Notes under the pieces: generated by a model
Seen by the model: the letters and a program-made list of their open reading frames with translations, nothing else
Told to the model about the DNA's origin: nothing
The model's database searches: none
Part shown: positions 11,249-59,176 of the stretch, one piece after another
Position numbering within the stretch: position 1 is the stretch's first letter
Layout of the letters: each line of letters starts with the position of its first letter
Translations under genes and position numbers: made by a program
Origin: Patescibacteria group bacterium
GTDB taxonomy: Bacteria > Patescibacteriota > Patescibacteriia > 2-02-FULL-49-11
Reading direction: 5' to 3'
Assembly (NCBI GenBank): GCA_041645165.1
Contig: JBAZQN010000001.1
Coordinates: forward strand, 53,971 to 117,970
Length of the DNA stretch: 64,000 bases

Positions 11249-12214
11249 TTATTCCTGTTCAGGCATAGTCATAATAATCCGTTGCACTTCCTCGAGGGTT
11301 TTTACTTTTACAAGTTCCTCGCGGATTTTTTTTGCGCGCGGCAAGCCCTTCACATACCATGCCAGATGTTTGCGCATTTCAATAATGCCGTATGGGCCTT
11401 TGGCCTCAAGCGCAAGTTTTACGTGCTCCATGATATATTGTTTTTTTTCGTCCCAGGTCGGTTCGTGATAAGTACCTGATGCGAGATATTCTCTGATCTG
11501 CCGGAAAATCCAAGGCCGCCCCAGCGCCCCGCGCGCAATGCCTAATCCGTCCGCATGCGTGGCCTCCACCATTTCCTTTGCCAATACAGGGCTGTAAATG
11601 CCGCCATTCGCGATCACGATGCCAGTAAAAAGTTTTTTCACCTCTGAGATCATCTCGAGATCAGGTTCACCGTCAAATGGCTTTTCGTACGATCGTCCGT
11701 GGACCATAATTGCCGAGATGGGGAGGGATTTTATTTTTTTTACAAGATCAAGCGCTGTTATTTTTTTTTGATTCAGATTAATACTTGCGCGGACCTTGAT
11801 GGACACGGGAAGCGTGGTAGCACTGCATACCGCAGCGACGAGTTCAGCGCAAAGTTCGGGATTTCGCATCAAATTTACGCCACCACCATGGCGAGTCACC
11901 TTGTACGCGGGACAGCCGAAGTTGATATCAATGCCCGAGAATCCCAAGCGTTCCACCTGCCTTGCTGCTAAGCGTAATACAGACGGGTCATTGCCGAATA
12001 TTTGGCATACGACTGGCTTCTCACCCGGCGAGAAGGAAAGCATGTCGTGCGTTTTTTGGCTGTTCCGCGCAAGGGCATTTGCGGAAGCGAATTCAGTATA
12101 AATAACATCAGCGCCGAACCGTTTGCACATGGTGCGGAATGCCAGATCAGTGACTCCTGCCATGGGTGCAAGGGCGAGGAAGGGTTTTGGCAATTTTGTC
12201 CAGAAATTATTCAT
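11249..12214 (-). CDS. dus: tRNA-dihydrouridine synthase
   Basis: LAPMAGVTDLAFRTMCKRFGADVIYTEF and a TIM-barrel FMN-binding profile. Confidence 0.85.
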   Translation of the reverse strand: MNNFWTKLPKPFLALAPMAGVTDLAFRTMCKRFGADVIYTEFASANALARNSQKTHDMLSFSPGEKPVVCQIFGNDPSVLRLAARQVERLGFSGIDINFGCPAYKVTRHGGGVNLMRNPELCAELVAAVCSATTLPVSIKVRASINLNQKKITALDLVKKIKSLPISAIMVHGRSYEKPFDGEPDLEMISEVKKLFTGIVIANGGIYSPVLAKEMVEATHADGLGIARGALGRPWIFRQIREYLASGTYHEPTWDEKKQYIMEHVKLALEAKGPYGIIEMRKHLAWYVKGLPRAKKIREELVKVKTLEEVQRIIMTMPEQE

Positions 12215-12299
12215 ATGCGACTTGAGCTGCAGTGATTATATATTAATAATGCGATTATAGCTGAAAATGCGCCTTATTCAAAGCTTTTTATTATGCACT

Positions 12300-12328
12300 T
12301 TGACAAGGGGGGAAAGAACGTGTATAAA
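12300..12328 (+). promoter_or_regulatory. sigma70-type promoter (TTGACA-17 nt-TATAAA)
   Basis: TTGACA at 12300-12305, a 17-nt spacer, TATAAA at 12323-12328. Followed by a ~190-nt leader before the ORF at 12517/12526. Confidence 0.5.
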
Positions 12329-12516
12329 ATAGTAAACTGAATAAAGGAGCATATAGCAACGTATACATTATAAACGCGTAAAGTAACCTCATTTCACTCA
12401 TCAGTGCACGACATACGCTCAAAATGGAAAGCGGATGTGAAGCATCCCAAGCCCCGCCTTAAGCGGCGGGGTAACTGAAGGGGAAGAAGAGCGTAGCGCA
12501 TAGGTTCAAACGTTCG

Positions 12517-13356
12517 TTGGCAGGTATGCCTGCGGACGCTTGGATCGATTGCTTCTTCGGAGAAGAATGTCGTTCGCTAGGGTTTCACATGAAAAGGGGT
12601 CTTTGCGGATTCCTTTTTTATTGTACCTCAATATTTATTATGTCCGGAGAAAAAGATTCATTTGAAATTATTGAGGCGCTTAAACATGCGATTTGGACGC
12701 GCAGGCCGATGTTGGGGGAAATTATTCGCACGCATGGAGATAAGATTCTCTATGATTATACCGTAGATTTTCTTGATGTGAATAAAAGTAAATTGTTAGA
12801 CGATAGAAAGGGAGAGTTATTGGACGTGGTTAAGAAATTGTTGTCAGAAAGGTTAGGGGACAGAGTCGCTAGTGAGGTGGTAACGCAGATGGCGGCACTT
12901 CCGCTCGTTTCTACCGCGGATCACCATGGACCGATAGATCATCCATTTTGGGTCAATTCAAATATTATTAGCGGCATACCTCTATTTGAAAAAAAATTTA
13001 ATAGTGCCAAATATCTTGTGGTGTTTTCATTTGCCAGCGTGTCTGTGAACAATCTTTCCGCTTACCCGCGCGGCATCGAATTTCATGGAGGAGTAAACGG
13101 ATCCAGTAATATAATTAAATTACCTATTTTGCCAGATAAATTGAAAATGAGCGTGGTGTATGGCACTCGCGCATTTACAAGAGATGACTTAGAAAAGACG
13201 CACCATGAATTACTAATGAGAGAGCGTCATGGCGATATTATCTATGGACGCGCGGAAGAGGTGTGGAGGATAATTGAGAACAATTTTGGGAGTAGTGATG
13301 TCTTAAATGCTCTTGATTTTCCAAGCCAAGTCACAAAAATAAATTTTACCCTTTGA
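12517..13356 (+). CDS. hypothetical protein (no recognisable family)
   Basis: Intact 279-aa ORF. The annotated start is TTG; ATG candidates at 12526, 12589 and 12640. No family assignable. Confidence 0.5.
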   Translation: MAGMPADAWIDCFFGEECRSLGFHMKRGLCGFLFYCTSIFIMSGEKDSFEIIEALKHAIWTRRPMLGEIIRTHGDKILYDYTVDFLDVNKSKLLDDRKGELLDVVKKLLSERLGDRVASEVVTQMAALPLVSTADHHGPIDHPFWVNSNIISGIPLFEKKFNSAKYLVVFSFASVSVNNLSAYPRGIEFHGGVNGSSNIIKLPILPDKLKMSVVYGTRAFTRDDLEKTHHELLMRERHGDIIYGRAEEVWRIIENNFGSSDVLNALDFPSQVTKINFTL

Positions 13357-13398
13357 CAGATTTTTTTTCACCATACATTCTCCGATCATTCTCGTGAC

Positions 13399-14190
13399 GT
13401 GAGAGTGCCGGAACTCATTTATATTGAGATAGAAACAATTGTAAAAGAACTGCTTATTCATTATCATCTCTCTCGTCCAAAATCGTTATTGTATCGTATA
13501 TTATTCAATCAAAGGAAGCAACAATTAGTCCATTATTATTTTAATAATATCGCAGGCGCTTTTTCTAGCCAGCAAAAATGGGGCACTTACCTTTTTTGGG
13601 CGTTAGACAACAAGATGCATCGTGTTCGCCTCTCGTTAAAAGAGAATATTTTAATTTCAGAAGATAATAAAATTTCAATACCATTTACTCCCGAGGCAGT
13701 TGCACGTGCATTACAGGATAAAGCCATTTTTCCTAGTATGGCCATGTGTTATGTAACGGTAGCGCTCTATTATGGCATGAAATGCTTAGGTGGATTTTGC
13801 CAGGTACACGATCTGACTATGTTAAAAGAAGCCTGGATGAAAATCTTGTTTGAGGCGGATGAACGCGAGGAGGCGCTGGCTGTTGAACCGGTACAAACAA
13901 AAGAGTTGGGTGGGGATGGTATGGTGCTTGCTTATCTGAATACCCGGAAGGGTGAACTTGTACCCGCCACAGGCATTGATTTGGCGCTAAACAAGCAAGA
14001 TACCAGTTTTGAGAAATTCGTCGCGATTTCGCGGCGTGTGACACTTTCAGATATGATGAATTCTATGCTTCCTGAAATGTATACAGTCCTGTATCCTTCT
14101 TTTCAACGAGATGGAAGATTAGCCTCGCTTACCCCAGAACAAATTTCAAAAGTTATTGGTTTGCATGGAAAAATTGATATTGAAGAGTAA
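13399..14190 (+). CDS. hypothetical protein (no recognisable family)
   Basis: Intact 263-aa ORF lying 42 nt downstream of the previous one on the same strand. Confidence 0.5.
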   Translation: MRVPELIYIEIETIVKELLIHYHLSRPKSLLYRILFNQRKQQLVHYYFNNIAGAFSSQQKWGTYLFWALDNKMHRVRLSLKENILISEDNKISIPFTPEAVARALQDKAIFPSMAMCYVTVALYYGMKCLGGFCQVHDLTMLKEAWMKILFEADEREEALAVEPVQTKELGGDGMVLAYLNTRKGELVPATGIDLALNKQDTSFEKFVAISRRVTLSDMMNSMLPEMYTVLYPSFQRDGRLASLTPEQISKVIGLHGKIDIEE

Positions 14191-14300
14191 TCATTTTTCG
14201 CTTGTTTGAAAAGCTACAGCATATAAAGCCGCATTGATTCTTGGATATAAATAGAGTATGTTTAAAACGCTTATTTGCGTTTTGTTATTTTTATAGAGAT

Positions 14301-15491
14301 ATGAATACTAGTCCATTAGCCGACCGGATGCGGCCGGAGCGGCTGGAAGATTTTGTCGGACAGGAAGAGCTCCTAGGGAAGGGGACTTTTTTGCGCCGCG
14401 CCATTGAGGAAGACCGCGTGCCTTCCATGATTCTCTGGGGCCCGCCGGGGTGCGGAAAAACCACGCTTGCGCATGTGATTGCGCGGATCACGAAGGCGGA
14501 ATTTGTCTCATTGCCCGCGACATCGAGCGGTGTTGAGGAATTGCGCAAGATGATCGAGCGCGCGGAAAGCGGTGTGCGGCTTGGGGTAAAAACAGTCCTG
14601 TTTATTGACGAGATCCACCGCTGGAACAAAGCGCAGCAGGACCGGCTGCTGCCTTATGTAGAGAAGGGCGTGATAACGCTCATCGGCGCGACAACCGAGA
14701 ATCCCTCGTTTGAGGTGAATTCGGCGCTGCTTTCCCGCGCGCGCGTGTTTGTATTGAAACTGCTTGATGAAGCAGCGTTAAAGAAAATTTTGTTGCGGGC
14801 GGCTAAAGAAGCGGGAAGAACGTTTCCCGGCGAACTATTGGACTTCATCGCCGCGCAGGCGCACGGCGATGCCCGTTTTGCGTTAAATACGCTTGAGGCG
14901 TGTTTTGATGAAGGGGAAGTTATTACCATAGAAAGGATTAAGCAGATTTTGCAGAAATCCCACCTGTTGTATGACAAGAAAGGAGAAGAACACTATAATA
15001 TCGTTTCCGCTCTGCATAAATCCATGCGCGGGGGAGACGCAGATGCCGCCGTGTATTGGCTCGCGCGGATGCTCGAAGGCGGCGAAGATCCGCTCTATGT
15101 GGCGCGCAGAATTGTAAGGTTTGCTTCGGAAGACATCGGACTTGCGAATAACACGGCACTCCTTGTCGCAAATGCTGCGTTTGACGCATGCCACAAATTA
15201 GGCATGCCTGAGTGCGCGGTGCACCTTGCCCAGGCGGTAATGTACATGGCGCTGTCGAAAAAAAGCATTGTCGCGTATGAAGCGTATGGAAAGGCGAAAC
15301 AGGACGTGGAGAAGTACGGCGCCCTGCCCGTACCGCTCCATATCCGCAATGCGCCCACGCAGCTGATGAAAGATTTGAATTACGGGAAGGGATATAAATA
15401 CACGCCGCATTTCGAAGGCGACGCGGGTAAACAGGATTATCTGCCGGAGGAGTTGAAGGGAAGATATTATATTGAAAATCCAAAATTTTGA
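14301..15491 (+). CDS. rarA: replication-associated recombination protein A (AAA+ ATPase RarA/MgsA)
   Basis: PLADRMRPERLEDFVGQEELLG, Walker A GPPGCGKTTLA, Walker B LFIDEIHRWNK, and a MgsA C-terminal domain. ORF-track start at 14241; the internal ATG at 14301 fits the family N-terminus. Confidence 0.9.
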   Translation: MNTSPLADRMRPERLEDFVGQEELLGKGTFLRRAIEEDRVPSMILWGPPGCGKTTLAHVIARITKAEFVSLPATSSGVEELRKMIERAESGVRLGVKTVLFIDEIHRWNKAQQDRLLPYVEKGVITLIGATTENPSFEVNSALLSRARVFVLKLLDEAALKKILLRAAKEAGRTFPGELLDFIAAQAHGDARFALNTLEACFDEGEVITIERIKQILQKSHLLYDKKGEEHYNIVSALHKSMRGGDADAAVYWLARMLEGGEDPLYVARRIVRFASEDIGLANNTALLVANAAFDACHKLGMPECAVHLAQAVMYMALSKKSIVAYEAYGKAKQDVEKYGALPVPLHIRNAPTQLMKDLNYGKGYKYTPHFEGDAGKQDYLPEELKGRYYIENPKF

Positions 15492-15494
15492 TTT

Positions 15495-15881
15495 TTGCAT
15501 TTTGATTTTTGCATTATCGTCATGTTCCCTTGGCTCTTTCCCCTCTTTTGGGTTCTTCTCATCTTCCTCGGCTCCTCCATCCCCGGCGGATCAATTCCCG
15601 CGCCGGTGTCAGTGGCGAGCCAAGTGCTCCATGCGTGCGAATATGCGGTATTGGCATACCTTATCGCGCGTGCGTTTTCGCAAACAAAAAAAGAACCTAA
15701 GCACTCTTTCTCTGCAATTATTATCCTTGCATTCAGTATTAGCGTGCTTTATGGGGCTACTGATGAGCTGCATCAGTTATACGTCCCCGGGCGCCATCCA
15801 GATTCTATGGATGTGTTCGTAGATGCCCTCGGGAGTGGCATAGGGGTGTTTGTGTGGTATAGGTTGAAACGAGGGATTTGA
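15495..15881 (+). CDS. VanZ-like family membrane protein
   Basis: Small 4-TM protein with a VanZ-like pattern (ACEYAVLAYLIARAF). Confidence 0.5.
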   Translation: MHFDFCIIVMFPWLFPLFWVLLIFLGSSIPGGSIPAPVSVASQVLHACEYAVLAYLIARAFSQTKKEPKHSFSAIIILAFSISVLYGATDELHQLYVPGRHPDSMDVFVDALGSGIGVFVWYRLKRGI

Positions 15882-15944
15882 CGGCATGTGTACGCGAATG
15901 AGATATTTTTTTATCTAAAAACTGAGATAATAGAAAAGCAATTA

Positions 15945-16277
15945 TTATAACAAAATATCATCATCGGAGAATCCAGCATTGCGCATTATAATATAAACAT
16001 TATATAAATCTTGATAATACGGCTGAAAAGCTTCATTATCAGGTAGACGTTTCCCATCGCGATAAAAAATACTTGCATCCTTCAATGCAGTAAACAGTTT
16101 TTGAACTAGTTCAGAGTTTACTTCTAAAAGTTTTTTATATTGGGGAGTTTTTCGATACTCGTCGCCTAATTCACCTGAAGTGAAGAAGAGATACGTATTA
16201 TTGCTAAATCTACTACAGAATTCATCAAAGCTTAAGTATTCAATTTCCTCCCCGGATTCCTGTGAGGTTTCTGACAT
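15945..16277 (-). CDS. hypothetical protein
   Basis: Intact 110-aa ORF with no motif recognised. Confidence 0.35.
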   Translation of the reverse strand: MSETSQESGEEIEYLSFDEFCSRFSNNTYLFFTSGELGDEYRKTPQYKKLLEVNSELVQKLFTALKDASIFYRDGKRLPDNEAFQPYYQDLYNVYIIMRNAGFSDDDILL

Positions 16278-16330
16278 ATTAATGATACAGATTAATAAGC
16301 GGAATGAGTTGAGAAATAAGTTTAACGATA

Positions 16331-16765
16331 TTATCTTTTTATCGGCTGGGTTATCGTTTTGCCAAAGATATAGCAGTCTTCACCGTACCATTGTTTTTTA
16401 AACAAGAATCGTTCCTTGAAACCCATAGCCTTATAAAACCCTACTGCGTGGTACCGTAAAAGGCTCCAGCACCACAATTTTGGGATTTTCTCTTTTTTGC
16501 ATTTCTGGATGGCAAATTGTATGAGACTCCTGCCTGCGCCTTTCTGTTGAGATGCGATAGAATAGATTTGATAGGAGCCTTCGGTAGGCTCGAGGCACAT
16601 AGCCCCGACCGGTCGGTTTTTTTCGAGTGCGAGATAGTACCAGCCTTTAGAAACGTGAGCGGTAATGTGGTGAATATCAGAAAAGTGGTAATGTTCATTA
16701 TCAAGCACGGAAATAATCTTCGCAATCGAGGGAATGTGTTTTTTTGATGCTTTGAGTATTTTCAT
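16331..16765 (-). CDS. GNAT-family N-acetyltransferase
   Basis: Acetyl-CoA-binding core QQKGAGRSLIQFAIQKCKKEK plus GFYKAMGF. Confidence 0.75.
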   Translation of the reverse strand: MKILKASKKHIPSIAKIISVLDNEHYHFSDIHHITAHVSKGWYYLALEKNRPVGAMCLEPTEGSYQIYSIASQQKGAGRSLIQFAIQKCKKEKIPKLWCWSLLRYHAVGFYKAMGFKERFLFKKQWYGEDCYIFGKTITQPIKR

Positions 16766-55149: not shown

Positions 55150-55486
55150 AGTTGACAAAAGAGTATTCTGTTGTTCTAATGTATAATGTACAGAGAAAAG
55201 GGATGCTTGCCTGGATGCGACTTATTGTTGTAGATGAGCAAGAATATTTTAGTTTTATTTGTAATAAAGATTTATGGCATTGCTCATAGAGGGTTATGTC
55301 ATAACTTTATAATTTAAAAAGGTCGGCCTCTTATTTATTCAAGCATTTGGATAAATAAGTTGTAACGCTAATAAACTTGTCTGTTATATTTGATTTTAAT
55401 AGGTCGAATCATTATTAATAAAGTAACAGGCAAGATACACACTGTACGGTACTTTATCTACCGGCAGGGTGCGAAAGGAAGTACGA

Positions 55487-58400
55487 ATGTCGAATTTTAT
55501 CAAAAAAAGTTTTACATGGGGAGTTGTGGGCGCCACTATCGTATGGTCGCTCGGAATATTTGTTCTCCCCGTTCAAGTGAAGGGCGCGCAGGACGGCGAT
55601 CTTATCAAGATGCCGGGTAATCCTGCGGTATACCTTCTCAAGGGCGGCAAGAGATTTGTATTCCCGAACGACAAGGCATACTTTACGTGGTACAGCGACT
55701 TCTCTGGAGTGGTAACGGTATCGCAATCCGAGCTCCAATCGTATCCCATCGGCGGCAACGTGACTTACAAACCAGGTACCAGGTTAATAAAGATCACGAC
55801 CGATCCGAAGGTATATGCGGTTGAGCCAAACGGAACTCTCCGATGGGTAACATCGGAAGCGATCGCCGTTTCCCTCTACGGATCAAACTGGAACAAGAGA
55901 ATTGATGACGTTCCAGATCCGTTCTTCGTGAACTACACCACCGGCGCAGATGTCACGACTGCAACATACCCGGTTGGCTCTATAGTGAAAGAAGAGAGCT
56001 CCGCCACGGTCTATTACATTGCCGAGAGCAATACCAAGCGGCCATTCGCCACTGATGCGGCGCTCACCGCGAACATGATGAAGACCGGCAATGTGCTCAC
56101 CGCGACCAGTCTCGCCAGCTACACTTCAGGCACCTCTGTCACAGGCAAAGAGGACACGCTTGCAGTATTTGGCGGCACCACGAGCACCGGCCCCGCGGCA
56201 GGCGGCACGCTTTCATTGGCGCTCTCTGCTGACACGCCCGCGTCTGGCGTCTTCGTGAAAAGCGCTGCGCGCGTTCCGTTTACCTATATCAATGCGACCG
56301 CAACCGGCGGCGAAGCAGTGATTGACTCGATGGTAATCCAAAGAGGCGGCATTGCGCAGGACTCGATATTTTCAGATATCACCATTCTTGTGGATGGGAC
56401 GCAGGTGGGATTAAACAAATCCTTTAACTCCGTGCACCAAGCCACATTGTATGATGACATCACCATCCCAAGCGGCACTACCAAGAAGATCATGCTGACC
56501 GGTAATACGTCAGCGATGGCCTCAAACTCTGGTGAAATGCCGATCCTTGGTTTGGCTGCAGTTACCCTCAAGAGCGGCACCTTGTCAGCATCGCTGCCAA
56601 TCTATGGCAACCCGATGACTGCCAATAACACTATCAGTATCGCTGCCGTAACCGTCGCGCGCGGTCCGCTTGACCCCGGCGCCACTTCTACCCAGAAGAT
56701 CGGCACCAAACAATATGCCTTCACCTCGGTGAAACTTAGCAATGATTCAGTAGAAAAAGTGCAGGTGGAAGAGCTTATCTGGGATCAGGCAGGTTCAGCT
56801 GACGATTCAGACATTTCAAATGTCAATCTTTTGGTTGACGGCGTTGTGATTGCGTCCCTGTCCAATCCAGTGGACAAGAAAGCGCACTTCAAGCTTGCAA
56901 CCCCATATTTGATTGATAAGGGGAAGAACAAAGAGTTTACCATCAAGGCGGATATTGATTCTGGATCAAACCGCACGGTGGACTTTGACATCGAAAAGAA
57001 TACCGATGTCGTGGTAAAGGGATTAACCTATGGCTATTATGTCCTGGCAACAGGATGGCCATCAGCGACTGATCCTCGATTGAGCGGTTATGCCGTGACC
57101 ATTGATACTGGCTCGCTAAAGATTGAGCCTGTCGCCACCGCGTCCAACAAGATAACGGACGGCTCCACAGGCCAGATCTTGGGCATGTTTAATTTTGAGG
57201 CAAAGGGTGAAGATGTTTCCATCACTTCTCTCGGCATCAAGGTTACCGTTTCAAGCTCCGCGGCAAACGTATCTGACGTGACCAATATCACGCTCTATGA
57301 CGAGGCAGGCCTTGCGGTAGCCGGTCCGGTAGACCCTACAGGAACTACCGCAGATATTACCGCAACTTCCACTGATACCATTACGGTGCCCGTCGGCATT
57401 CATAAATACACCGTTAAGGGTGATTTGAGCACTGATTTTGTGTCTGCGGATACGGTGTTAGTGAAAATTAAGCCTTCAGACATCACTTCAAAGGGCGTCA
57501 CGACAGGCAAGACGGTCACCCCGACGCCCGCGACATACCAAACCTCTACCACACAAACGGTGCAGGCAGGATCTCTTGTGGCGAACATTTCCACGACTCC
57601 TGTGGCACAGACCGTGGTCGCAGGCACCAATGGGCATACCTTTACGAACTATGTGCTTGACGCGCAAGGTTCTGGCGAAGATATCCGTGTCACGCAGATA
57701 AAGGCTGCCATGCATACCACGGGGTCTTCCTACCCTGCGTTGATTTCAGGATTGAAGCTTTATGACGGCTCCCTCGAGCTCGTCACGTCAAATGATCCTG
57801 ATCCGACGAACACCACTGCAGCCGCATCGGCTACTTCAACCTTCACCTTTGTGAATGCGCTTGTAGTGCCGAAGGGAACCTCCAAGACTTTGTCGCTCAA
57901 GGGGAATATCTCCAAGAGCGTCACGTCTGGCACAGTGAAACTCGGGCTTCAGAATGATGCGACGAATGCTATCGCGGCGACAGGCAAGGATACCGGCGCG
58001 ACCATTACTCCTACCTACAGCTATTCTGACGGCCAAGCGATGACACTCACTGATGCTGGCACACTCACGCTCTCGGCAGACGCGTCTACGCCAATCGCAG
58101 GGCATGTTCCCGGTTCATCCACCGGACTCCCTGTGGGCGTATTCTCCATGCAATCGAGGCATGAGGATATCAATGTAGAAAAGATTTGGTTCAGGCTCTC
58201 AGCGGTGAACAGCGGCGGTCCAGATCAAGTTGACAAGATTTGGCTCACTGACGGCACGAAGACTGTAGGGGTTACTCCAACCTCTTCAGATTCTTCCGCT
58301 CCGGTTCAGGTGCTCTTCGATGTGTCACTTGATCCATTCGTGGTTGCCGCAAACACTACCAAGCTCTATACCCTCAAGGTTGATACGGCGCAAGTTGACA

Positions 58401-59176
58401 CGCCATCAGGATCCAAGGGCGCCATGGGCGAGGGCTTCCAGTTCTCGATTAACGCAACCGGTGATATTACCGCAAAAGGTGCGTCATCTGGCAATAGCGT
58501 AAGCACGATTACTGGCACGCCCACGTTCAATGCCTTTACCCTGTATAAGACTGTGCCAACAGTTGACGTATCGAGCGGAGTGACGAATAAGCTTACTTCA
58601 AACGGCACCTATGAACTCTACAAGTTCACCATTGCCGCGGATCCGAAGGGCGAAGTAGCTCTCTATAAGCTTACGTTCGGCATTTCAACGACCACGGTCA
58701 CCGCATCCAGCTTCGAGCTACGCGACAGCGGGTATACCCAGGGCGCAGTAGGCACCCTCTCCGTAGCGTCGCAGAACCTCGCTGTTCCGGCGTCAGGATA
58801 TCTCGAGTTCCTGTTTGACACGGATTCAAGCGGTATAGGCCAAGGCGGTGAGTATCGATCGATTCCTGCAGGCAGCTCGCGAACCTTTACTTTGAAGGCC
58901 AGCGTAAGCGGCTACAGCTCAAGCGTCTCCAATGGCGTGAACGTTGCGCTCGCAGGCGATGCAACCTTCCCATCAACCGTGGTTGAGTGCGCAGGCACTA
59001 CCGGAGCAAGCGATAATGCGTGCACCGGTGTAGATTCCGACGATCAGGACGACTTCATCTGGTCTGACCTTAACTATGGTAACAACTCCACGACTGCCAC
59101 TAATACGGCACAATGGACCAACGGTTACCGCGTGAAAGGCCTTGATTCAACCTCGTCAACTGCGCAATCAATCTAA
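55487..59176 (+). CDS. large Thr/Ser/Gly-rich secreted surface protein (S-layer/adhesin-like), N-terminal ~55-aa modules shared with ORF 1306-2934
   Basis: Signal peptide/TM FTWGVVGATIVWSLGIFVLPVQVKGA. Modules GDLIKMPGNPAVYLL... and GTRLIKITTDPKVYAVEPNGTLRWV... Over 1000 aa of low-complexity T/S/G/A/V beta-rich sequence. RBS aaggaag before ATG 55487; the ORF-track start at 55469 is GTG. Confidence 0.7.
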   Translation: MSNFIKKSFTWGVVGATIVWSLGIFVLPVQVKGAQDGDLIKMPGNPAVYLLKGGKRFVFPNDKAYFTWYSDFSGVVTVSQSELQSYPIGGNVTYKPGTRLIKITTDPKVYAVEPNGTLRWVTSEAIAVSLYGSNWNKRIDDVPDPFFVNYTTGADVTTATYPVGSIVKEESSATVYYIAESNTKRPFATDAALTANMMKTGNVLTATSLASYTSGTSVTGKEDTLAVFGGTTSTGPAAGGTLSLALSADTPASGVFVKSAARVPFTYINATATGGEAVIDSMVIQRGGIAQDSIFSDITILVDGTQVGLNKSFNSVHQATLYDDITIPSGTTKKIMLTGNTSAMASNSGEMPILGLAAVTLKSGTLSASLPIYGNPMTANNTISIAAVTVARGPLDPGATSTQKIGTKQYAFTSVKLSNDSVEKVQVEELIWDQAGSADDSDISNVNLLVDGVVIASLSNPVDKKAHFKLATPYLIDKGKNKEFTIKADIDSGSNRTVDFDIEKNTDVVVKGLTYGYYVLATGWPSATDPRLSGYAVTIDTGSLKIEPVATASNKITDGSTGQILGMFNFEAKGEDVSITSLGIKVTVSSSAANVSDVTNITLYDEAGLAVAGPVDPTGTTADITATSTDTITVPVGIHKYTVKGDLSTDFVSADTVLVKIKPSDITSKGVTTGKTVTPTPATYQTSTTQTVQAGSLVANISTTPVAQTVVAGTNGHTFTNYVLDAQGSGEDIRVTQIKAAMHTTGSSYPALISGLKLYDGSLELVTSNDPDPTNTTAAASATSTFTFVNALVVPKGTSKTLSLKGNISKSVTSGTVKLGLQNDATNAIAATGKDTGATITPTYSYSDGQAMTLTDAGTLTLSADASTPIAGHVPGSSTGLPVGVFSMQSRHEDINVEKIWFRLSAVNSGGPDQVDKIWLTDGTKTVGVTPTSSDSSAPVQVLFDVSLDPFVVAANTTKLYTLKVDTAQVDTPSGSKGAMGEGFQFSINATGDITAKGASSGNSVSTITGTPTFNAFTLYKTVPTVDVSSGVTNKLTSNGTYELYKFTIAADPKGEVALYKLTFGISTTTVTASSFELRDSGYTQGAVGTLSVASQNLAVPASGYLEFLFDTDSSGIGQGGEYRSIPAGSSRTFTLKASVSGYSSSVSNGVNVALAGDATFPSTVVECAGTTGASDNACTGVDSDDQDDFIWSDLNYGNNSTTATNTAQWTNGYRVKGLDSTSSTAQSI

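Follow-up and report, generated by a model that had tools for sequence, protein, structure and literature searches.

The locus examined here can be compared with ordinary nonsense pseudogenes and leaky UGA alleles for the state of its gene, with BshC and the class I aminoacyl-tRNA synthetases (aaRS) for the predicted fold of its product, and with attenuation leaders and riboswitches for its upstream region. BshC is described as having a Rossmann-fold core, CP1/CP2 insertions like those of class I synthetases and a helical domain for dimerisation; its activity as a ligase has yet to be reconstituted in vitro (PMC4360819). The locus lies in a 64,000-nt stretch of a Patescibacteria group bacterium (assembly GCA_041645165.1, contig JBAZQN010000001.1, positions 53,971 to 117,970 of the forward strand), the whole of which is called the window below. 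Two neighbouring open reading frames (ORFs) on its plus strand, present in public annotation as separate hypothetical proteins, are shown by sequence comparison to be a single gene, broken by a TGA at an invariant tryptophan codon.

The gene resembles ordinary nonsense pseudogenes and leaky UGA alleles in that a single G to A change, from TGG to TGA, interrupts an otherwise intact ORF. It is like them, too, in that sister genomes lack it and that its family is sporadically disrupted elsewhere. It differs from them in the total lack of secondary decay and in the weak UGA-C context of the stop.

Two open reading frames in a common frame

The ORF listing places ORF1 at 12517-13356 (279 aa) and ORF2 at 13399-14190 (263 aa), with a gap of 42 nt between them. 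Both start at coordinate 1 modulo 3 and thus have a common frame, and when 12517-14190 is translated in that frame the sole internal stop is the TGA at 13354-13356. Homology and the NCBI and ENA gene calls all place the start codon at ATG 12640, which gives an N-terminal product of 238 aa; the extra 41 residues of the 279-aa ORF have a counterpart in no homologue in the alignments, and the conserved N-terminal block opens just after this ATG. The whole gene (12640-14190) has 516 codons, with the stop at codon 239 and a terminal TAA, and is made up of the following parts:

12640-13353, plus strand: N-terminal half, codons 1-238 (NCBI WC659_00320, 238 aa), which aligns to homologue residues 1-238.
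13354-13356, plus strand: in-frame TGA at the invariant Trp (W239), found in the translation, the alignments and three assemblies.
13357-14190, plus strand: C-terminal half, codons 240-516 plus the TAA; gene callers restart at GTG 13399 or GTG 13405 (NCBI WC659_00325).

The TGA stands in the codon context CTT TGA CAG (UGA-C) and aligns with residue W239. This column holds Trp in 68/68 close homologues, within a 'LWP/LWQ' motif (alignments of 32 and 69 sequences), and is at least 90% Trp in a broad alignment of 80 members with 35% mean identity. One G to A change converts TGG into TGA.

A search of the joined product against ~5.8 billion protein clusters returned 320 matches. The best 120 of these are single proteins of 470-569 aa, with 50-59% identity and 91-100% query coverage, all named 'hypothetical protein' and without a Pfam domain. 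Since ORF1 and ORF2 share a frame with a lone stop between them, and the homologues are single polypeptides that run across both halves, the two ORFs are one gene. The initial annotation had treated them as two genes behind a promoter and had offered, as alternatives, one split gene or a two-component system of unknown function. The split-gene option agrees with the single-frame break and the full-length homologues, while two separate genes are contradicted by the shared frame and the single TGA with no further stop, and a two-component system by homologues that are single polypeptides (97-100% coverage) and by the position of that TGA at an invariant Trp. The ORFs of 279 and 263 aa, 42 nt apart, do exist as had been described, but the first is over-extended, its true start being ATG 12640.

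State of the interrupted gene

The N-terminal half keeps 21 of 22 family-invariant positions, the exception being a conservative change from L to M. Past the stop, 35/35 invariant positions are kept, together with 78 of the 80 positions conserved at 90% or more; intact family members deviate on average at 2.8 of these downstream positions. The ratio of C-terminal to N-terminal identity, at 1.02, is typical of the family (1.005 +/- 0.043). Since nothing past the stop has decayed, the mutation must be very recent unless translation still reaches the second half. Uninterrupted genes were found in 79/80 species-representative loci, the sole exception (L062; L and P numbers are our handles for loci and proteins) having an in-frame TAG at a different position. 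Disrupted family copies elsewhere are this one (TAG at ~4856, in a Parcubacteria metagenome-assembled genome, MAG) and two with frameshifts (L063 and L083), and since such copies occur sporadically, loss of the gene is not unusual. These three disruptions could be either real pseudogenes or assembly errors.

Taken together, the locus is most likely a recent loss-of-function allele, that is, a young pseudogene, a reading that we favour with moderate confidence. A change from TGG to TGA at the invariant Trp codon would have interrupted the 516-codon gene. Because TGA is an ordinary stop in this organism, most ribosomes should end at codon 239, releasing a 238-aa fragment that would lack over half of the fold. 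UGAC was reportedly the weakest termination signal measured in Escherichia coli (Poole, Brown and Tate, EMBO J 1995), and Trp is the residue usually inserted when a near-cognate tRNA reads UGA; a small share of full-length protein, wild type in sequence, would therefore probably still be made through misreading of UGA-C. Both the recency of the mutation and the leakiness of UGA-C are points that we infer.

Several observations weigh against this reading. The lack of decay past the stop fits continued selection, that is functional read-through, equally well as recency. The TGA is known from metagenome assembly consensus, and the three assemblies that contain it may share reads or a sample. Among the accompanying features described below, the promoter, attenuator and terminator are purely consensus or thermodynamic matches, the folding z-score of the leader is matched by ~6% of random segments, and the link to BshC is at fold level only (profile probability ~1%, TM 0.42).

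The gene would simply be intact if UGA were a sense codon here, read as Trp (code 4) or Gly (code 25). UGA is reassigned in some lineages of the Candidate Phyla Radiation (CPR), as Gly (code 25) in some Gracilibacteria, and the TGA does stand where Trp is expected. However, the organism uses TGA as an ordinary stop: among the 54 further long ORFs of the window, 16 end with this codon, ORFs of up to 1235 aa run without it in frame, and ~56 kb of coding sequence in the window holds no other in-frame TGA. A systematic search of the window for pairs of long open segments parted by one stop found no other real gene split by TGA. Of the same-frame pairs, one is RarA/VanZ, which read-through of TGA would fuse even though they are separate genes, 82 nt apart in relatives, and in the second an ORF precedes a HisF-like gene that starts at an ATG of its own, two codons past the stop. 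Genetic codes 4 and 25 were rejected on these grounds, leaving a sense UGA with a negligible likelihood, and recoding is likewise rejected for the window, because TGA otherwise acts there as an ordinary stop and splits no further gene. A selenoprotein was also rejected, as the aligned residue is Trp and never Cys, and a scan of the window at Rfam gathering thresholds gave one tRNA alone and no selenocysteine insertion sequence (SECIS). It is highly improbable that the TGA arose as an error of assembly or consensus calling, or that the assemblers fixed a minority allele, with a true gene that is intact and carries TGG. Such an error would agree with a gene that is otherwise flawless and known solely from metagenome assemblies, and the assemblies are 100% identical over 4.3-6.8 kb and possibly derive from the same sample or reads. 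Yet three pipelines gave the same base (NCBI/JGI MAG, ENA MEGAHIT contig and Logan per-run assembly). The exact 238-aa and 261/263-aa products are present in NCBI (MFA4872365.1 and MFA4872366.1, from a MAG contig of 182,672 bp), JGI, ENA and Logan. The window sequence, TGA included, recurs with 100% identity in an ENA contig (ERZ27249422, across 6.8 kb) and in a Logan per-run contig (SRR8449827, across 4.3 kb). A G to A substitution is moreover not typical of systematic Illumina assembly error, and no intact allele was found among ~15 billion proteins, the best full-length match being 58% identical.

Two further explanations accept the stop and keep the gene functional. In the one, tRNA-Trp reads UGA-C often enough for the stop to be tolerated, or even useful as an expression throttle. 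The weak context, the exact restoration of the invariant residue by inserted Trp, and the retention of every downstream invariant, including F243 within the 42-nt stretch from the stop to the first restart codon, are all in its favour. A programmed read-through or recoding site was nevertheless rejected, because orthologues have no stop at this position: Trp occupies it in all 68 homologues of the alignment, and the interruption is peculiar to this genome, the TAG of L062 lying elsewhere in the gene. No stimulatory structure was evident by eye past the stop, nor did the Rfam scan return one; stops in bacteria typically leak at a few per cent, and relatives without the gene altogether suggest that it is dispensable. 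Functional read-through is unlikely. The other explanation is a genuinely split protein, whose 238-aa and 261-263-aa fragments (restart at GTG 13399 or 13405) would associate non-covalently. Both halves are conserved, and in the ortholog model described below the break falls at a helix end, just before the most variable and lowest-confidence loop (model residues 251-260, predicted local distance difference test score, pLDDT, 73), with the restart codon just ahead of the next conserved block, PELIYIEIET. Against this, two invariant residues, W239 and F243, would be missing from the fragments, GTG 13399 and GTG 13405 both lack a preceding Shine-Dalgarno sequence, the Rossmann-like core of the model extends over both halves, and no other member in the 80 species-representative loci is split at this point, which makes a split protein extremely improbable.

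Extent and neighbours of the protein family

Both halves and the fusion of the two gave no match in Pfam, NCBIfam, PADLOC or PHROGs, in agreement with the earlier statement that the ORFs belong to no recognisable family. A sequence profile search of the PDB returned noise only, with Fpg at E 0.1. The homologues come from Peregrinibacteria/Peribacteria, Gracilibacteria, Magasanikbacteria and Kerfeldbacteria. An exhaustive profile search of representatives clustered at 50% identity recovered 1,080 with E <= 0.001, of which 533 had E <= 1e-30, mostly from Peribacteria, and the family, as judged from these sequences, is large and apparently confined to CPR bacteria. Its invariant motifs are STADHH, SxNN, PRG and YYGxKCLGGFxQ. 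In a neighbour-joining tree the window protein lies on an isolated deep branch and pairs with Peregrinibacteria in 33% and with Magasanikbacteria in 32% of bootstraps.

Family-bearing MAGs labelled Gammaproteobacteria, Saccharibacteria or Woesearchaeota were also encountered (L041, L045-L048, L055, L057 and L069), and are probably mislabelled or contaminated bins. Tandem paralogues, 31-34% identical to the query, occur in some Peribacteria-type genomes (L029, 5622-6740; L048, 690-2168), and a distinct subfamily is found at 34-38% identity (L071-L085).

The conserved neighbourhood of the family is weak. When the three genes on either side were clustered, the most frequent neighbour occurred in only 7/80 loci, so that no operon inference can be made. 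Occasional neighbours, each in at most 7/80 loci, include D-Ala-D-Ala ligase, PBP2 and DUF2156/LPG_synthase_C. In 7/15 Peribacteria loci the family gene is accompanied by a tRNA-Pro(GGG) gene, on either strand and ~0.2-1.8 kb upstream (L009, L019, L021, L023, L026, L029 and L030); this proximity is probably lineage synteny, with no functional link.

Four members of 846-942 aa are C-terminal fusions. P0148 carries a C-terminal RimK-type ATP-grasp domain above the Pfam cut-off, P0242 and P0247 have weaker ATP-grasp matches, and P0143 has a weak diaminopimelate-epimerase-like match.

Fold and likely chemistry

The closest intact ortholog (P0001, 58% identical to the window protein) was modelled with AlphaFold2 from a 68-sequence alignment. 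The model has a pLDDT of 94.5 and a predicted template modelling score (pTM) of 0.93, and its only weak stretch is the variable loop right past the Trp helix. In a Foldseek comparison with the PDB, the sole significant match was BshC (4wbd; E 3.9e-5, probability 1.0, template modelling score, TM, 0.42, 13% identity, 396 aligned columns). The next matches, all non-significant, were the class I LysRS 1irx (E 0.19-0.27, probability 0.69), TyrRS and ArgRS.

Besides this fold match, the family is similar to BshC in length (~520-540 aa). For profile comparison, the BshC sequence was verified against 4wbd and BshC homologues were collected; hhalign aligned the two profiles with a probability of ~1% and E 0.056, with one plausible motif pair, GGFsQvnYLTxMKxAY in the family and GPGEIxYWaELKxAF in BshC. 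On the other hand, the BshC invariants GQQxGLxTGPLYTxxK and WxAGEDHD have no counterpart in the family, AGPGExxYW is only loosely like LGGFxQxxYL, and BshC lacks the STADHH, SxNN, PRG and YYGxKCLGGFxQ motifs. Nothing resembling a bsh operon (bshA/bshB) recurs among the three neighbours on either side in the 80 family loci. A Pfam scan found no PF10079 match in the window protein or in 68 family members, and a single BshC sequence gave no match against the family alignment. Membership in the BshC family (PF10079/PF24850) was rejected, given no Pfam match and a profile comparison that is non-significant with one plausible shared motif, and on the predicted structure the family is probably a fold-level relative of BshC, not a member.

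A possible likeness to class I aaRS consists of the second-tier fold matches and of the family motif DHHGPxxH, with an invariant DHH(G), directly past the first beta-strand, which could take the place of HIGH by positional analogy. The family differs from these enzymes in that the fold matches are non-significant and that no recognisable KMSKS, anticodon-binding domain or Pfam synthetase match is present.

The rare ATP-grasp fusions give a weak hint of amide-bond ligase chemistry, and the occasional neighbours named above point, also weakly, in that direction. With lower confidence than for the gene structure, the protein may be a Rossmann-fold ligase of BshC-like or class I synthetase-like type, with amino acids as substrates and ATP-grasp ligases as partners. 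That it is ATP-dependent, ligates amino acids or a peptide and works in concert with ATP-grasp enzymes is a tentative proposal that falls short of an even chance.

A lineage-specific block

The close relatives lack the 2.1 kb block to which the gene belongs. The block and the feature at its downstream end are:

12216-14318, no strand: lineage-specific 2.1 kb block with promoter, leader, gene and terminator, delimited by blastn against relatives (L088-L091).
14263-14294, plus strand: terminator-like hairpin with a T-rich tail (-8.5 kcal/mol, z -2.1, weak), just before rarA (ATG 14301).

The RarA of the window shares at least 90% identity with its counterpart in Candidatus Uhrbacteria RIFCSPLOWO2_02_FULL_49_11. 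Along four contigs of these relatives the genes follow one another as they do in the window: ABC transporter, PEBP, Dus (minus strand), RarA, VanZ, GNAT (minus strand) and HAD (minus strand). Their flanks are collinear with it at 84-92% nucleotide identity, the block is missing, and dus and rarA lie ~130 nt apart in a spacer from which the terminator-like hairpin is also missing. The block was either inserted here or deleted in the sister lineage. In both cases the sister species can do without the gene, consistent with a gene that is being lost.

The gene has a GC content at third codon positions (GC3) of 0.377, compared with 0.511 +/- 0.076 for 50 other ORFs of the window (z -1.8, third lowest), a composition that hints at foreign origin. 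No terminal direct or inverted repeats flank the block. A mobile element or genomic island was rejected: besides the lack of repeats, the block holds this gene alone, the family was not found on viral contigs, and no PHROG matched.

Adjacency of dus and rarA was absent throughout 80 distant rarA loci, and none of the 85 family loci had a dus, PEBP or vanZ gene nearby. Two of these 85 loci (L033, 7475-8662; L063, 7655-8821) do have a rarA homologue, 48% identical, at 2-3 kb downstream of the family gene and on its strand, which is too rare to interpret.

A second segment of the window, 15861-16359, is also absent from the Uhrbacteria relatives, which have 73 nt there. It contains an ORF on the minus strand (15945-16277, 110 aa) that was assigned to no family and has a GC3 of 0.279, lower than any other in the window; the segment may be another lineage-specific acquisition.

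Promoter and leader

Upstream of the gene, the 425-nt intergenic region between it and dus contains a promoter-like site and a predicted structured leader:

12300-12328, plus strand: sigma-70-type promoter-like site, with TTGACA at 12300-12305, a 17-nt spacer and TATAAA at 12323-12328.
12336-12639, plus strand: putative untranslated leader of ~305 nt with several stable hairpins in minimum free energy (MFE) folding and no credible ORF.
12451-12472, plus strand: GC-rich hairpin gccccgccttaagcggcggggt, with 8 bp and a 6-nt loop (-18.0 kcal/mol, z -3.7).
12503-12546, plus strand: long interrupted hairpin of 7+7+4 bp (-24.5 kcal/mol, z -4.9).
12591-12619, plus strand: terminator- or attenuator-like hairpin followed by U6 (-12.7 kcal/mol, z -3.6), ending 21 nt ahead of the ATG.

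The promoter-like site matches the consensus at 11/12 positions, and would place transcription start at ~12335-12337 if it functions as a promoter, as its sequence suggests. A scan of both strands for TTGACA-N16-18-TATAAT, in which T must not be demanded at -10 position 6 lest TATAAA be skipped, found four 11/12 matches in the window, against 1.4 expected in mononucleotide shuffles. The site was thus present as the initial annotation had described it; its rank as the uniquely best promoter match in the window was not borne out, since it is tied for best with the three others. These lie at 55152-55180 (plus strand, intergenic, just upstream of the 1235-aa ORF at 55469-59176), at 14971-14999 (plus strand) and at 12782-12755 (minus strand, antisense, from the 5' end of the gene towards the leader).

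The leader is ~305 nt long, because the gene starts at ATG 12640, and the earlier estimate of ~190 nt was too short; the GC hairpin described at the same time is present at 12451-12472. The segment 12335-12645 folds with an MFE of -100.4 kcal/mol (z -3.96), and a re-test gave z -3.7 in the sense and -1.5 in the antisense direction. Random 311-nt segments of the window had a mean z of -1.0 and 2/36 of them reached z <= -3.9; as these fold as well, the signal is suggestive but not compelling. All six frames of the leader are stop-filled, with no usable ORF. The hairpin at 12591-12618 has the core GGGGUCU/GGAUUCC, extendable by A-U pairs, with U6 at 12614-12619; a terminator scan skips it because the A-U extension consumes the U-run.

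Covariance model searches with 4,227 families (Rfam 15) gave nothing in the window at gathering thresholds but a tRNA, and at E <= 10 the region 12200-12700 had two chance matches only (CRISPR-DR65 and rox2). The claim of a structured leader thus goes unsupported by Rfam, although it is not refuted, and no close relative carries the gene. Leader homologues were found neither by blastn and nhmmer in 85 family loci and the rest of the window nor by a 30-mer search of JGI metagenome contigs, and Rfam scans of 15 homologue loci gave tRNAs alone and no other RNA element. Upstream regions of family members elsewhere are short (median spacer 124 nt), so a long leader is no family trait.

As in attenuation leaders and riboswitches, a promoter is followed by a ~250-nt structured region and by a hairpin with a U-run 21 nt before the start, and the stable hairpin and U-run of 12591-12619 lie between promoter and start codon as in an attenuator of the intrinsic-terminator type. 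The locus differs from these systems in having no Rfam match at E <= 10, no antiterminator identified and no leader homologues for covariation. From this architecture, the gene may have its own promoter and a ~305-nt structured leader ending in a terminator-like hairpin that could act as an attenuator. The 'leader' might instead be a small RNA gene in its own right, ~285 nt long, that extends from the promoter to the U-run at 12619 and is unrelated to the downstream gene, an explanation that concerns the leader alone and is compatible with a broken gene downstream. The strong promoter match, the several stable hairpins, the sense-specific folding and the terminator-like end ahead of the ATG are consistent with a small RNA, whereas the searches found no Rfam family, homologue or further copy, the stem of the terminator is weak (core of 3 G-C, 3 G-U and 1 U-A), and the interval from 12619 to ATG 12640 is too short for a separate promoter and would leave the gene promoterless. 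We consider a small RNA distinctly unlikely.

A more far-reaching combination would join a new class of BshC-like, class I synthetase-like amino-acid ligase, working with ATP-grasp ligases in envelope or peptide biosynthesis, to an undescribed ~250-nt attenuator or riboswitch and to UGA-C read-through as a second throttle; we regard this as very unlikely.

Significance of the locus and the family

The locus is a broken new member of an uncharacterised but already catalogued protein family, and the phenomenon itself is ordinary. As a correction to public annotation, the hypothetical proteins WC659_00320 and WC659_00325 would be recorded as one interrupted gene, a break that annotation pipelines cannot flag because the family has no model. 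The locus also illustrates gene-content turnover in streamlined CPR genomes, with a single-gene 2.1 kb block that one Uhrbacteria-like lineage has and its sister lacks, and that is already nonsense-bearing. Its wider value lies in the family more than in the locus: the family is large, well conserved and confidently foldable, and is a reasonable target for biochemistry.

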